DNA from: Eledone cirrhosa
Taxonomy: Eukaryota
Length of the DNA: 64,000 nucleotides
Assembly: GCA_964016885.1 (NCBI GenBank)
Contig: OZ024741.1
Coordinates: 391,096,001 to 391,160,000 of the forward strand
Reading direction: 5' to 3'
The translations under genes and the position numbers were made by a program. This document shows positions 3,487 through 58,211 of the stretch, one piece after another; position 1 is the first letter of the stretch, and each line of letters starts with the position of its first letter. A model generated the notes under the pieces. It was not told where the DNA came from, ran no database searches, and worked only from the letters and a program-made list of their open reading frames with translations.

Positions 3487-3534
3487 AACATTTGAAAAGA
3501 TGGCTTTTGCAGACCCATCGAAACCGGTCATTTT
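3487..3534 (+). ncRNA. Minimal type-I hammerhead ribozyme, U3-A8 core variant, in the PLE 3' terminal region
   Basis: aacat-TTGAAAA-GATGG..CCATC-GAAA-CCGG-TC-atttt; 5-bp stem II, palindromic stem III, GUC site; stem I has one mismatch. Confidence 0.7.
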
Positions 3535-3636
3535 TTATACCCTTTATTATTTCCTTACCTTATAAAATTATATGTTTTTTCACAAAAAAGTATTCTGTCT
3601 CTTATATATTCCATGTGCCATTACCAACCTCAATTT

Positions 3637-3812
3637 TCTCTCTCTCTCTCTCTCTCTCTCTCTCTCTCCTCTCTCTCTCTCTCTCTCTCTCTCTCTCTCT
3701 CTCTCTCTCTCTCTCTCTCTCTCTCTCTCTCTCTATATATATATATATATATATATATATATATATATATATATATATATATATATATAGAGAGAGAGAG
3801 AGAGAGAGAGAG
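3637..3812. repeat. (CT)n(AT)n(AG)n microsatellite
   Basis: Directly visible. Confidence 0.95.
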
Positions 3813-4272
3813 ATCGTCTTCTTGGCTCTCAGAAGCTCCTCTGGTGAAGGGCTCTGTCTCAACATCCAGTTCCTCAAACAGCCGCCTGATCTCCCCAGTG
3901 CTCTGGGCTGTGGAGGGTGGCTCTCCTAGTAGGGTCCTAAAATGGTCTAGCCATTTACTCTTCCTATCCTCGGCCCCGCTCCCTGGATCTGACTCGAACA
4001 CCTTCTCTTCCTCCCTGTGATCTCGCTGATGATCATCCAGCTCTCCTTACATCCAGATCTGTCAACCGCTCTCTCCACACTTCTGATCTTCTCTATCAGT
4101 GCCTCCTCTCTGACCTCAGTGTAAGCGGTACAGAGCTCTTCCCTCATCACCTCCACAGTCTCCATCCTCTCCTCCGTAGGATCAGCATAGAATTGGTCCC
4201 TGGCAGCTTTCAGGTGTTCTCTGGCTGCACACACTTTTGGGTTTGCAGAGCTGACGTACTTCCCTTTGTTCT
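3813..4272 (-). mobile_element. Inverted 5' segment of the adjacent RTE LINE
   Basis: Minus-strand frames resemble the pre-RT linker (KESWMIISEITG, SKWLDHFRTLLG); its end duplicates about 30 nt at the start of the + strand RTE (gaggagctt..gccaagaagacgat). Confidence 0.8.
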
Positions 4273-4274
4273 TT

Positions 4275-5778
4275 AGAGGAGCTTCAGAGAGCCAAGAAGA
4301 CGATCAAGGAGGGCAAGGCTCATGGAGAAGATGGAGTGGCATCAGAGGTGATGAAGAGGTGTGATTTTAATGATATCATCCTGGGGTTCTGTAACGGGGC
4401 ACTGGAGAAAGGAGTTGCCCCGAATCAGTGGAGGATCAGTAACATCGTCCCAGTGCCAAAGAAGAGAGATCTCTCTAACACCAACAACTACCGGGGGATC
4501 TCACTGACGTCACTTGTGGAAAAGACCCTCAACAGGATGATTCTTAACAGGATCCAGCCTGAGATGGAGAAGAAGCTCAGGGACAACCAGAACGGCTTCA
4601 GAGAGGGTAGATCAACCACCAGTCACATCCTGATGCTGAGGAGGATATTAGAGGGATCTAGAGCAAAGTGCCTTCCTGCGGTCATGGTTTTCATTGACTT
4701 TAGGAAGGCCTTTGATTCTGTGGACCGTTACTGCCTGATGAAGATCTTACAGGCTTATGGAATCCCCAAGAGGATAGTGGACCTGATATCACTGCTCTAC
4801 ACCAACACCAAAGCCCAAGTCATTACACCTGATGGGATGACAGAGTTCTTTGAGATACTGGCTGGAGTGCTCCAGGGAGATACATTGGCTCCCTACCCTT
4901 TTATCATCGTAGTGGACTATTGTATGCGCCTTGTACTGGAGAAACACCAGGACTCTGGCTTTACTGTAGCACCGGCTCAGAGCAGGAGAGTTAGGGCGAA
5001 AAAGGTATCGGATGCTGAATTTGCCGACGACATAGTTTTGGTGACAAATACAGTGAAGGAGGCAGAGGATTTGATGCGGGAGGTTGAGACTGTGTCGATG
5101 AGTGTGGGGCTGAGAATGAATGAGACTAAAACAAAATATCTGGTAGAGAATGTTGAGAAGCCAGAGGAGATCACTAATGTAGGCGGGAAGCCGCTGGAAT
5201 TGGTTGAGGACTTCCTGTATTTGGGAGCAAAGATTGGGAATACGGAAGATGATGTGGTTGAGAGGAAGAGCAAGGCCTGGGCGGCGTGCCACAGCTTGAG
5301 ATCGGTGTGGAAGTCGGACCTTCGTAGAGACCTGAAAATCCGCCTCTTCATTGCTGTAGTGGAGTCTGTGCTGCTGTATGGGTCTGAGACTTGGACACTG
5401 ACCAAGAAACTCACTCAGATGGTGGATGGGTGCTACACTAGAATGCTGAGGATGGCTCTGAACATTAATCAGTATACACTGAGGATGAAAAACTCGGAGC
5501 TGTGTAGGGGCGTCCCAAAGGTCGGCTCAAGGGTGGCACAGAGGGGACTGAGGTTGGCTGGACATGCTCACCGACATCCAGAGTTGACATTGCACTCAGT
5601 ACTCCTTTGGGAGCCCCTACATGGACACACTAGAAGAGGAAGACCAAGGTTAACGTATGTTGATGCCCTAAGGACAGACACTGGTCTGTTGGAGATACAG
5701 GACATGGCAGTGATAATGAGGGACAGAGACCGCTGGAGAGAACTCGTCCATGGATCTCGGGAATTTTACCCGCCTTAG
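4275..5778 (+). mobile_element. RTE-clade LINE, 5'-truncated RT and C-terminus (ORF 4336-5778)
   Basis: NYRGISL, QNGFREGRST, FIDFRKAFDSV, GVLQGDTLAP, FADD, LLYGSETW, LRLAGH, RGRP; ends directly in (TA)n. Confidence 0.93.
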
Positions 5779-55116: not shown

Positions 55117-55287
55117 ATAGATAATATTTATAAGTATATTTTATGAAGAATTAAGGTTGCAAGTATATTTTACTTTATTATATTATATAACTCTTTGCTT
55201 ATATATATATATATATATTAATAAAAGGTGACAGTCAAGTTTGCAATTTTCGTCGAAAATTGCAAACTTGACTGTCACCACAGAATA

Positions 55288-55326
55288 TGAACCTGAAGAT
55301 TGCGAAAGCATGAAAGTACTTGTTCA
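55288..55326 (+). ncRNA. Ultra-minimal hammerhead preceded by a 53-bp palindrome (55227-55279)
   Basis: tgaac-CTGAAGA-tTGC gaaa GCAt-GAAA-GTAC-TT-gttca. Confidence 0.75.
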
Positions 55327-55672
55327 ATTAACATTTATTATTCTACCATACTATTTCATTATAAAATCATTATAATTTTAAAGGATTGTAAATAAAATGA
55401 GTTAATCAAAGTTGGAATTCCTTTTATTAATATAATCTTCTATACACAATCATACACACACCTGTGTATATTTATTTACACACACACACACACACACACA
55501 CACACACACACATATATATATATATATATATATATATATATATATATATATATATATATATATATATATATATATATATATATATGTAAAAGGTAAACAG
55601 AAATAACAACGCAATCGGTACAGTATATGGAAGGTATATATTAGGTTAACGCTTGATATAGCAGGTAGAGGG

Positions 55673-55708
55673 TCTTAACGTTTCGGACGCTAGTCCTTCA
55701 CCAGAAGA
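55673..55708 (-). ncRNA. Penelope-type minimal hammerhead with A6G change
   Basis: Minus strand tctt-CTGGTGA-aGGAC tagc GTCC-GAAA-CG-TT-aaga. Confidence 0.65.
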
Positions 55709-56380
55709 TAAACACACACACATATATATATATTATTTGTCTAAGCAGAAAGTACCTGATTTAGGAGTTGCAGAAACCCAAATGCTGGATTTTACCAACC
55801 TTTCAGGGGTCCGGGTATAATTTTCAATCATATTTTATTTGTTTGACCCGAATTACTTGGTCGTTTCTATGGCTGTGCGGATAATGGATTAACCATCGTC
55901 TCAATGTGTTTGGCCTTTTAACTTATCTTGTAGCTCTAGTTCACTAGCTTCTATGGAGCGCTTGCCACACATCTCAGAAGTTGTTTTTCGCTAATTTCCA
56001 ATAGCCGAAATACGATTCTCGCTAATTTATATGTGTATTAATCTCCAGAGTCTAGAAATTGACCAGTTAATCTTCTTGATTTTTTTAGTTAGTTCTATTG
56101 ACTGATGAATAGCTTTTGTTAATTTTAAAACCATTCTGCTGAGAACTTAAATTCGTTTTGTGATATTTTGCAATTTGCAATAATAACACACATACTGAAT
56201 TCATCCGCCAAATATCTGAGTAATATGTTAGTACTTCTAATGTACAAACCATATTATATCATTGAGTCACGACCGGAGCTGAACCAATTCTCTTCGACTA
56301 GCTTCGTATAGCAATATTTATATATATATATATATATACATGTATATACATGTACATATATATATATATATATATATATA

Positions 56381-58211
56381 TTTAAAAGAATAGAGGTGTA
56401 AGACACGAGTTATGATATATTGGTAAAAGGAAAAGAAAATGGTGACAAATTGTTCCCAGTGAAAAATAGTTTAATTAGGAATAAGTAAAAATTAGTAATA
56501 GTATTGGTTAGTATTCAGTTTTGGTTTTAAGTTTTACCGGTTGCGTATTTCTAATGCTTTTCAAAAATAATTTTGAGATAGAGCGCCCGTGATGTTTGCT
56601 CTAATCTGATTAGTTTTGGAAATTCTACCTGTTTTATGTAAAAAAAAGTGGCTCCAGATGTATGAAAAAATTATTGTGGTCAAAACAATTTTGATTGGTC
56701 GGTAGAGGTCATGTGAATGTTAAAAATTGATTTTCCGCCAAATGTAGGTTTGTCTCGGCTGATTGAGAAGTCACTGAAAAATAAGTCTTTCAAGACAAAT
56801 ATGTGTGTGTGTGTGTGTGTGTAGTAGTAGTAAAGAGGTTCGTTGTTGTGATAATGGTCAGCAGGGATGTGTGTGCGAACCGCAGCCTGCTGACAGTTCA
56901 AATGCCTATTAAGACAAGTGTGTGTGTGTGTGTGTGTGTGTAGCAGAGTAATTCGTGGTAGAGGGATCGGTCAGTAGGAATGTGTCTGTACGTGTGTGGG
57001 AGATATTTTAACATGTTAAAAGATATTTTTCAGCTCTTGTCTTATACGGAGAAGTGTGTGTGTGTGTGTGTATATGTCTCTTTGTATGTTAATGTACGCG
57101 TGTGTATGTGTGTATGTATATATATGTGTGTATGTGTGTGAGAGAATGTGTGTGTGTGTGTGTGTGGGTGGACCAGTATTTTTGTGATACTGGTGAAAAT
57201 GGTGTACATTATTCGATATTTTCAGTAAAAACGATTCTCTCAATAGAACATCAAAAACCTTAATAATAAAAGGTGTGAAATGATATATAGTATTGGCATA
57301 ATACCAAGGTGTGTGTGAGTGTCCAGATTGTACATACTGCAAGGGGAATCCATTAGGCCTTGCCGTATTGGAATACTTGTGTACAAATATGTATGTGCCC
57401 ATCAGTGTGAAATGCATGTGTGCGTATATGTATGTGTGTGTGTCGGCACGTTTATATCTATAGACATCAAAAGGTATGCAAATATGTGTGTATATTTGTG
57501 TTGCACCATAGAACATGAGTGTTTACGTATGTCATTGTGTTTATATGTGGATAGAGATGTATGTAAGATGTATGCTGATGTAGGTATGTATGTTGACGTG
57601 TGTATGTTGTGGGTTCGTCTTAGGGAGAAGTGTTTAGACGGGGTCCGTATTTGTTAATAAAGTGAGATTCCTTGCTGATGCGCTGGGTGTGGGTGGCATT
57701 ATCTTTAAATTTGTAGAGGGGAAAGATTCTGAAGTTGGGATGATTTTGGGCGGCACAGGTATCAATGTGTTCACTCAGTGGTATTTGCCTCTTTACTACT
57801 ACTACTACTACTACACACACACACACATATTTGTCTTGAAAGACTTATTTTTCAGTGACTTCTCAATCAGTCGAGACAAACCTACATTTGGCGCAAAATC
57901 AATTTTTAACATTCACATAACCTCTACTGACCAATTAAAATTGTTTTGACCACAATAATTTTTTCATACATCTGGAGCCACGTTTTTTACATAAAACAGG
58001 TAGAATTTCCAAAACTAATCAGATTAGAGCAAACATCACGGGCGCTCTATCTCAAAATTATTTTTGAAAAGCATTAGAAATGCGCAACCGGTAAAATTTA
58101 AAACCAAAACTGAATACTAACCAATACTATTACTAATTTTTACTTATTCCTAATTAAACTATTTTTCACTGGGAACAATTTGTCAGCATTTTCTTTTCCT
58201 TTTACCAATAT
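56381..58211 (-). mobile_element. Truncated Neptune-like PLE: EN C-terminus (57620-57790), 3' UTR, about 424-bp inverted repeats (56415-56838 / 57788-58211), short tail
   Basis: RQIPLSEHIDTC..NFRIFPLYK..QRISKESHFINKYGPRLN is homologous to the C-terminus of ORF 2-2278. Confidence 0.88.
58060..58097 (+). ncRNA. U3-A8 hammerhead variant (mirror at 56531-56568), with A13C change
   Basis: attt-TTGAAAA-GCAT tagaa ATGC-GCAA-CCGG-TA-aaat. Confidence 0.55.

Follow-up and report, generated by a model that had tools for sequence, protein, structure and literature searches.

We analysed a stretch of 64,000 nucleotides from Eledone cirrhosa (assembly GCA_964016885.1, contig OZ024741.1, positions 391,096,001 to 391,160,000 of the forward strand), hereafter the window, in which hammerhead ribozymes occur at the ends of Penelope-like elements (PLEs) and in short tandem units that lack a long open reading frame (ORF). 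The genome measures 3.0 Gb, and the window is rich in microsatellites and retroelement remnants. The ribozymes lie in single arms or in pairs of arms joined head to head (fold-backs).

Hammerheads and their carriers in the window

To find intact hammerheads, we used a type-I descriptor that requires CUGANGA, a stem II, GAAA, a stem III close to a palindrome, UH, and a stem I of at least 3 bp, with 25 locally matched second-order Markov sequences as controls. Thirteen sites passed, against a control mean of 0.56 (maximum 2), each with the CUGANGA...GAAA...UH core and stems I and II. The original prediction, made from the letters of the window, had listed 24 coordinates as a dense population of about 20 hammerheads. 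Their density is indeed far above chance, but half of the list proved to be core variants or damaged copies that fail the strict descriptor: 12 of the 24 coordinates passed (10581, 10875, 11585, 12799, 31326, 35574, 36702, 37129, 37977, 44571, 54534 and 55288), and the thirteenth passing site, with its core at 8931, was not on the list.

Cores of the U3-A8 type, a variant already reported for PLE hammerheads (PMC4209133), are found at 3487, 6775 and 10210. The same core is combined with GCAA instead of GAAA in both arms at 56531 and 58060, while the copy at 41498 has a C3/A8 core and long relatives with U3-A8 or U3-G8. Of the other failing sites, 9760 and 45935 carry G12A and 55673 carries A6G; the core at 19749 has two changes, and a stem is broken at 6047 and 9695. 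Across copies, a 3-8 core pair (C3-G8 or U3-A8) and compensatory stem changes are both present; in the family called C below, the compensatory changes fall in stems II and III, and the junctions differ from copy to copy. No hammerhead family occurred among 150 of the 170 Rfam matches to the window, the other 20 scoring lower; these 150 were microsatellite-driven microRNA models only. When five single-strand hammerheads were folded, stems I and II clearly formed the minimum-energy structure only in family A (z -3.0); the other four did no better than shuffles, and folding energy was not taken as evidence.

Of the 24 listed sites, nine lie in fold-backs shorter than 1 kb and ten in single arms, while the other five are in long fold-backs that retain remnants of a PLE ORF, so the earlier description of hammerheads mostly in ORF-less fold-back mini-elements was overstated. 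Seventeen are PLE ends, twelve of them tied to an ORF directly and five by similarity (9695, 9760, 37129, 37977 and 54534); five belong to ORF-less tandem units, and two (19749 and 55673) have no family. Most units are thus PLE ends rather than the non-autonomous class that had been supposed. Such a class does exist, as five ORF-less, retrozyme-like families of 319-683 nt that bear the PLE insertion footprint. The expectation of roughly ten sequence families also held, and ten (A to J) were searched genome-wide. Table 1 gives their members in the window.

Different PLE and retrozyme-like families are stacked end to end at 9400-11950 of the window and at loci L005, L023, L151 and L210 elsewhere, each in (TA)n beside or within the preceding element. 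This stacking accounts for the local density of hammerheads.

Table 1. Hammerhead-bearing insertions and related PLE sequences in the 64-kb window (RT, reverse transcriptase; UTR, untranslated region).
Position	Strand	Feature	Evidence and remarks
2..2278	+	Neptune-type PLE ORF (RT and C-terminal GIY-YIG), open at 5' window edge	Pfam RVT_1, GIY-YIG; motifs GLKF, DKG, CX4CxxC
3487..3536	+	U3-A8-core hammerhead, 3' terminal repeat of PLE at 2..2278	Sequence; this copy has a stem I of just 2 bp
5956..6401	-	Single family I arm (tandem unit 443 nt, ORF-less); hammerhead 6047-6100	Exact matches, unit map
6646..6850	-	Family C (subfamily C2), single arm of 318-319-nt tandem unit	
8810..9232	+	Single family F arm (tandem unit 484 nt, ORF-less); hammerhead intact, core 8931	
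9562..9857	.	Family A relative, a short fold-back with both hammerheads damaged	80-83% over hammerhead
9959..10408	.	Family C fold-back	Long-ended minus arm (ribozyme 3' half only) and short-ended plus arm (U3-A8 hammerhead, predicted cut after 10275)
10432..10980	.	Family A fold-back of Hydra-type PLE terminal repeat; hammerheads 10581, 10875	Tailed minus arm and tail-less plus arm, joined at recurrent family A 5' boundary
10991..11945	.	Fold-back of the family H tandem unit (645-683 nt, ORF-less); hammerhead intact, core 11590	
12540..12905 (left edge approximate)	+	Family B, single tail-less arm into PLE 3' UTR; hammerhead 12799	
19690..19830	-	Decayed hammerhead (two core changes) with tail	No family given
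31291..35679	.	Hydra-type PLE whose broken ORF is flanked by inverted arms of 909 nt (98%); hammerheads 31326, 35574	Against family A protein: 47% and 34%
36543..36899	.	Short family B fold-back, one arm tail-less and one tailed; hammerhead 36702	
37040..37200	-	B-like single tailed arm; hammerhead 37129	79% to 12793-12893
37950..38085	+	Single tail-less arm, J-like; hammerhead 37977	By similarity
41405..41760	-	Tailed arm of family D, extending into PLE 3' UTR; hammerhead 41498, long stem II	
42109..44676	.	Remnant of a Hydra-type PLE (family J), arms inverted; hammerhead 44571	Endonuclease fragment 43385-43795; 46% to family A protein
45595..46063	.	Fold-back of the family G tandem unit (526 nt, ORF-less); hammerhead 45935	G12A in this copy
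54255..54461	.	Family D short fold-back, ribozyme 3' halves only	Absent from earlier list
54495..54620	-	B-like single tail-less arm; hammerhead 54534	84% to 12796-12902
55218..55455	.	Neptune-type PLE end (family E) as a short fold-back; minimal hammerhead 55288	L310 and L319 have an endonuclease fragment upstream
55590..55705	-	Single arm; minimal hammerhead carrying A6G	No family given
56420..58208	.	Shortened Neptune-type PLE, 380-nt inverted arms; variant hammerheads 56531, 58060	Endonuclease fragment 57632-57790, 57% to ORF at 2-2278

Families, arm ends and boundaries across the genome

Eleven short patterns taken beside the hammerheads of the ten families gave 92,270 exact matches genome-wide, and reversed-pattern controls gave 0-1; these counts are of arms, not of intact ribozymes. 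Among PLE families there were 5,779 matches for A, 29,253 for B, 22,131 for D, 6,782 for E and 3,861 for J. The ORF-less families together had 24,464: 195 + 1,131 for C, 17,598 for F, 2,601 for G, 483 for H and 2,456 for I.

A single ORF with RT and, at its C terminus, a GIY-YIG endonuclease was recognized by Pfam at 2-2278, by motifs and Atlas clusters in family A, and from fragments in B, D, E and J. At locus L053, family A has an 891-aa open frame with RWK, DKT, YRDD, CxCX5C and YIGAT; the Atlas clusters nearest to this ORF are RT-like and GIY-YIG. Its ORF stretch has 1,241 first-look candidates in the genome, the best 40 at 99-100%, and by such identity the family A parent is young. The Hydra motifs RWK, DKT and CxCX5C are all present in L053, DKT or CxCX5C recur in window fragments, the flanks are (TA)n, and Hydra-type ORF fragments are linked to families B, D and J; by motifs, A, B, D and J are Hydra-type. 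The element at 3487, family E and 56420-58208 are Neptune-type. Partial tandems were seen in families A (unit 4,122-4,135 nt, about 4.1 kb) and B. The known traits of endonuclease-bearing (EN+) PLEs are present: a pseudo-long terminal repeat (pLTR) in partial tandem, an inverted truncated copy, a one-sided tail and a hammerhead in the pLTR. Between RT and endonuclease (L053 residues ~480-750; window 33430-33900) lies a long in-frame low-complexity stretch rich in N, R and P; such inserts differ among the Hydra-type families and are reminiscent of N-rich inserts described in PMC3846280.

Families C, F, G, H and I consist of units joined head to tail, each with one type-I hammerhead: 318-319 nt in C, 443 in I, 484 in F, 526 in G and 645-683 in H. 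In one unit per family, the longest ATG ORF is 28 (C), 66 (F), 43 (G), 81 (H) or 51 aa (I), and GC is 35-37%. Direct spacings of 437-443 recur among the family I matches. Arrays of 4.5 and ~15 units were found in family C, the latter (G000:C1:82390495-82395292) on one strand and 88-93% similar to a reference unit; subfamily C has an extra A before GAAA, which C2 lacks. Family C arms longer than one unit run into the next unit, and 0 arms entered common non-unit upstream sequence in 24 + 30 unbiased loci and the 30 best matches. Short head-to-tail units with a type-I hammerhead, no coding capacity and GC below 45% characterize non-LTR retrozymes, and all five families fit the description of retrozyme-like elements.

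Positions within families were counted from the predicted hammerhead cut. Family A arms terminate at +56 or ~+155, always at a TA step in (TA)n, and are here called short-ended (tail-less) or long-ended (tailed). Head-to-head pairs combine one arm of each kind. This was the case for 46 of 48 family A pairs (binomial p 4e-12), for 11/11 pairs in B and for 10/10 in D. The tandem families follow the same rule: their insertions have (TA)n flanks, two fixed ends and head-to-head arms whose lengths differ from copy to copy. A short end is paired with a long one in 30 of the 31 family C pairs that could be classified (4 more were unclassifiable and 11 loci unpaired; binomial p 1e-8) and, among classifiable pairs, in 4/4 in G and 5/5 in H. 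Families F and I show the same two end types by inspection. Among the 46 family A pairs, the tail-less arm was longer 5'-ward in 11 (by ~2 kb in L063), the tailed arm in 7, and the two were equal in 28. For the first 100 matches each of families A and B, pair spacings were distinct in 20/22 and 26/26 pairs; three of the 22 A pairs have one common spacing, junction palindromes are present, and each family includes two tail-to-tail pairs.

Many arms also share a 5' boundary. In family A, the start falls at -172..-162 in 17 of 30 unbiased arms, 7 others reaching further upstream and 6 being shorter, and genome-wide 599 + 594 arms end at -168/-166 versus 842 that continue; many copies are perfect palindromes around an 8-nt palindrome at this boundary. 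In family B, 9/30 arms lie within -3..+9 of a TC/ACT motif, and the ORF-bearing copies L172 and L176 begin a few bases ahead of it; in this family B sample, the arm L151 was scored long through mis-alignment, and 14 of the 32 arms doubled as references. The family D boundary (17 of 24 sampled arms at -48..-28, around TTAGT) falls inside stem II, and most sampled arms are half-ribozymes for that reason, 20 of the 24 lacking the 5' half of the core and keeping the ribozyme 3' half only. A family D RNA starting there (window 54336-54461) would hold half a ribozyme, and only read-through RNA could cleave. Genomic hammerhead counts thus overstate ribozyme numbers, many copies being half-ribozymes.

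The boundary motifs resemble initiator elements (Inr). An Inr-like TCACT in a pLTR (PMC3846280) and an internal promoter with Inr (PMC2377424) have been described, and the recurrent 5' boundary is likely the RNA 5' end, at a transcription start. By eye count, the base preceding the first 100 boundary arms listed is G in 31, A in 12 and T in 57. No RNA run was listed among the sequencing runs for the one stretch searched, from family A. Descent of the family A minis from a short master with one fixed start base had been suggested by a BLAST sample that was biased, and unbiased pattern samples led to its rejection; an apparent splice site at the tail was a masking artefact. In contigs of three runs of unrecorded kind, depth rose at the 5' boundary and fell after the tail; this pattern was not counted, because contig depth is no copy number and a run may be the assembly's own sample.

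Arms of one family A locus diverge by 0.46% (n=53), versus 1.85% between loci (n=8,986). The main haplotypes are present in both short and long arms, and the identical junction occurs on differing haplotypes. Since haplotypes are common to short and long copies, the short family A fold-backs are not a lineage.

In the partial tandems of families A and B, a motif (TA, 5-7 nt, CTCC, spacer, GTYGAG(YGCT)) stands behind both arm ends. A similar motif is present in the tails of D, J, 9562, 19749 and 37129, and the Hydra-type motif lies directly behind the long end in G and H units, where the tight form occurred in 0.15% (G) and 0.4% (H) of 2,000 shuffles. We infer that the motif is an RT-binding signal and the tail the stretch between two such signals. 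Short PLE fold-backs would then likely be dead ends, because the signal behind the last start site is never copied. Within C, F and H units, stretches rich in (TA)n or (CA)n lie at the arm ends or close to them and could pair with target DNA in priming.

The window holds other repeats. A ~190-nt repeat resembling short interspersed elements (SINEs) has about a dozen copies, 82-93% alike (17270-17600, 22908-23094, 27070-27191, 43808-44010, 46691-47071, 47666-47842 and 54661-55120); the pair at 54662-55116 is inverted, and the copy at 43808-44005 sits within the family J PLE remnant. Imperfect palindromes (79-82%) without a recognizable hammerhead lie at 20094-20317 and 31061-31225, the latter with a solo relative at 53916-54015. 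ORFs with RT and endonuclease of several kinds, of the long interspersed element (LINE) type and unconnected to hammerheads, occupy 4255-5778, 13523-16560, 48989-51039 and 59640-64000.

Origin of the fold-backs

Our reading, to which we assign a probability of about 0.7, is that the hammerheads lie in truncated (TA)n insertions of PLEs and of five ORF-less units, both inserted by PLE enzymes that prime both strands. PLE enzymes likely spread the tandem units because their copies bear the two-ended insertion footprint of PLEs. In this process, a PLE RT-endonuclease, probably a dimer, would nick both strands of (TA)n, and a single RNA would be copied from two internal RT start sites, which would set the two fixed 3' ends. 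The two cDNA 3' ends would then be joined head to head by microhomology or end joining. Starts in the 5' terminal-repeat copy would run off at the transcription start and give short fold-backs, whereas starts in the downstream repeat copy would give long arms; in family A, the self-complementary 8-mer at the boundary would favour perfect palindromes. One RNA with two sites would account for both the pairing of unlike ends and the matching haplotypes, since two free RNAs would give half like-ended pairs. Retrozyme-like units would supply tandem or circular RNA, through putative hammerhead cleavage and ligation, to be copied in trans, and arms of the tandem families would exceed one unit because the template is tandem or circular. 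The fold-back shape likely arises anew at each insertion and is not inherited.

A wider proposal is tentative, with the odds slightly against it: animal retrozymes may be SINE-like parasites of specific PLE clades, G and H having captured the Hydra-type RT start signal, with a dimeric PLE enzyme reading two signals on one RNA and priming both DNA ends, and with circles made by the hammerheads giving templates longer than a unit. Were it true, PLE tails in general would be the stretch between duplicated start signals, and the genome would hold tens of thousands of direct footprints.

Several points count against the proposed insertion by PLE enzymes. Pfam detected neither RT nor GIY-YIG in the family A ORF at E<=0.1, and its BLASTP match to the Neptune-type ORF was weak (E 0.005). 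The start-site motif was defined by eye ahead of the shuffle test; among the C, F, G and H units examined it is absent from C and F, and in G and H it follows just one end of the two. The analysis identified no partner PLE for families C, F and I. The genome samples are the first 10-30 matches of one contig or the best 40 BLAST matches. The extra G ahead of the boundary may derive from the opposite arm and is no proof of a cap. PLE hammerheads cleave poorly in vitro (PMC4209133), and cleavage is not required for PLE insertion (PMC11167929). Finally, L018 (G000:C22:901010) and L022 (G000:C22:31103512), 30 Mb apart in unrelated flanks, have a common odd junction and truncation point. Segmental duplication was rejected for this pair, whose flanks are unlike beyond the microsatellite; it may represent a rare second-generation copy or conversion.

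Same-haplotype arms and junction palindromes are equally compatible with self-priming, in which one cDNA would fold back at a palindrome and the second arm would be its copy, trimmed by the endonuclease to the tail-less end. This was put forward in PMC3846280; the many perfect family A palindromes centred on the 8-nt boundary palindrome agree with it, and the pairing of one short with one long end follows naturally. We nevertheless regard it as unlikely. A single folded-back cDNA does not readily fit the 11 of 46 family A pairs whose tail-less arm extends further 5', L063 among them, which would require an extra one-sided deletion; in addition, the identical motif stands behind both ends in the parent, and both strands are extended in vitro (PMC11167929). 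Still less probable, and clearly so, is that fold-backs of tail, hammerhead and inverted copy propagate themselves, as the original prediction held. The recurrent family A junction class (599 arms) and the L018/L022 pair would suit such a lineage, but pair spacings are mostly distinct in A and B, family C junctions vary, one junction occurs on several haplotypes, each main haplotype is also found in long copies, and most family D minis lack half of the ribozyme. Among the copies sampled, none with a common inversion point and length and private variants of their own were found, L018/L022 being the possible exception. Unique breakpoints had been named as the mark of independent truncated insertions; breakpoints are indeed mostly unique, but one 5' boundary recurs and is best explained as an RNA 5' end.

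It is also improbable that the tandem families spread without PLE enzymes, by LINE machinery or by local unequal crossover after a single birth from a pLTR, or that they are ends of unsampled PLEs. The missing partners for C, F and I, the long arrays and the small samples leave some room for this, and a 2026 preprint (bioRxiv 10.64898/2026.07.22.740005) invokes local tandem amplification. Against it stand hundreds to thousands of dispersed, mostly short copies, many head to head with two fixed (TA)n ends that match those of the PLE families, unlike a single tailed 3' end; no sampled family C arm enters common non-unit sequence, and G and H carry the Hydra-type motif. The absence of hammerheads among the listed Rfam matches and the very AT- and microsatellite-rich region would favour chance motifs or fold-back artefacts of assembly, but we give these almost no credence. 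The excess over Markov controls and the near-empty reversed-pattern controls speak against chance, and both explanations are refuted by covariation in the stems and by arms that are diverged (83-100%) and asymmetric in a fixed manner.

Relation to known systems

The elements belong to known kinds or are close variants of them. What is new is the footprint evidence that ties retrozyme-like units to PLE enzymes, together with a testable account of tails and fold-backs. PMC7229834, PMC8557442 and the 2026 preprint leave open by which enzyme animal retrozymes are mobilized and how the tails and inverted ends of PLEs originate. This genome offers side by side a young PLE with an open frame, a motif behind each predicted RT start, and ORF-less units with the same footprint and, in two families, the same motif; because these occur together, both questions can be tested with an existing in vitro assay. 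On the practical side, the fold-backs may be mis-annotated as miniature inverted-repeat transposable elements or microRNA precursors, and the available part of a recent octopus repeat annotation makes no mention of hammerheads (PMC13282606). We found no published report of PLE-type ends on retrozyme insertions, of the duplicated start-site motif or of run-off at a transcription start, in a search that left subscription papers and supplements largely aside.

EN+ PLEs are known to insert as inverted truncated copies with one-sided tails, junction palindromes and a (TA)n bias (PMC3846280, PMC8557442). The insertions described here have the same head-to-head arms, a tail on one side, junction palindromes, (TA)n targets, pLTR hammerheads and partial tandems. 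They differ in their tails, which measure ~75-100 nt in A, B and D versus 30-40 nt in EN+ PLEs, and the pairing of one short with one long end, the 5' boundary ascribed to run-off and the motif repeated behind both ends, quantified here, do not appear in the accessible portions of those two papers. Non-autonomous PLE derivatives, such as MRC1, are already known from the same sources. Families A, B, D and J share RWK, DKT, CxCX5C, a C-terminal GIY-YIG, hammerheads and (TA)n with the Hydra clade (PMC8557442, section 11). That clade is described as "generally <3 kb", a typical and not an absolute trait, whereas the family A unit is 4.1 kb, and end copies here run to thousands to tens of thousands.

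Minimal PLE hammerheads (PMC4209133) have the same palindromic stem III and U3-A8 variant and mostly occur singly, in truncated PLEs; that paper had already recorded pairs on opposite strands, separated by 100-700 bp, and among the sources consulted it was the only one in which cleavage of the hammerheads as dimers was found. As far as its available text goes, that work neither separated PLE ends from tandem units nor mapped arm ends, as was done here.

The closest biochemical parallel is Poseidon, a PLE of Anolis, whose protein uses two internal start sites that match the tail ends and requires a further ~55 nt of RNA past these sites, nicks both strands and extends them, and is predicted to be dimeric (PMC11167929). 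Two internal RT starts that set the tail, nicking and extension of both strands and AT-rich targets are thus common to Poseidon and to the process proposed here. Poseidon belongs to a different clade, its starts lie in an AC-rich stem-loop without target homology rather than at TA steps able to pair with (TA)n, and inverted joining was not reconstituted in vitro.

Animal non-LTR retrozymes (PMC7229834; the 2026 preprint) have the same ORF-less head-to-tail units with one type-I hammerhead, GC of 35-37% and a range from dimers to long arrays. Families C (319 nt) and I (443 nt) fall inside the 150-450 nt quoted for their units, whereas F (484), G (526) and H (645-683) exceed it. The copies in E. 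cirrhosa, known here from DNA alone, are mostly partial two-armed insertions with PLE-type ends. PLEs have been named a "strong candidate" mobilizer of retrozymes (PMC7229834), and the preprint backs mobilization by PLEs with co-occurrence and relatedness while leaving the mechanism open; in its main text, as far as available, the words "tail", "target site" and "integration" do not occur. The link between retrozymes and PLEs rests in those papers on co-occurrence and sequence relatedness, and here on an insertion footprint and a common start-site motif.

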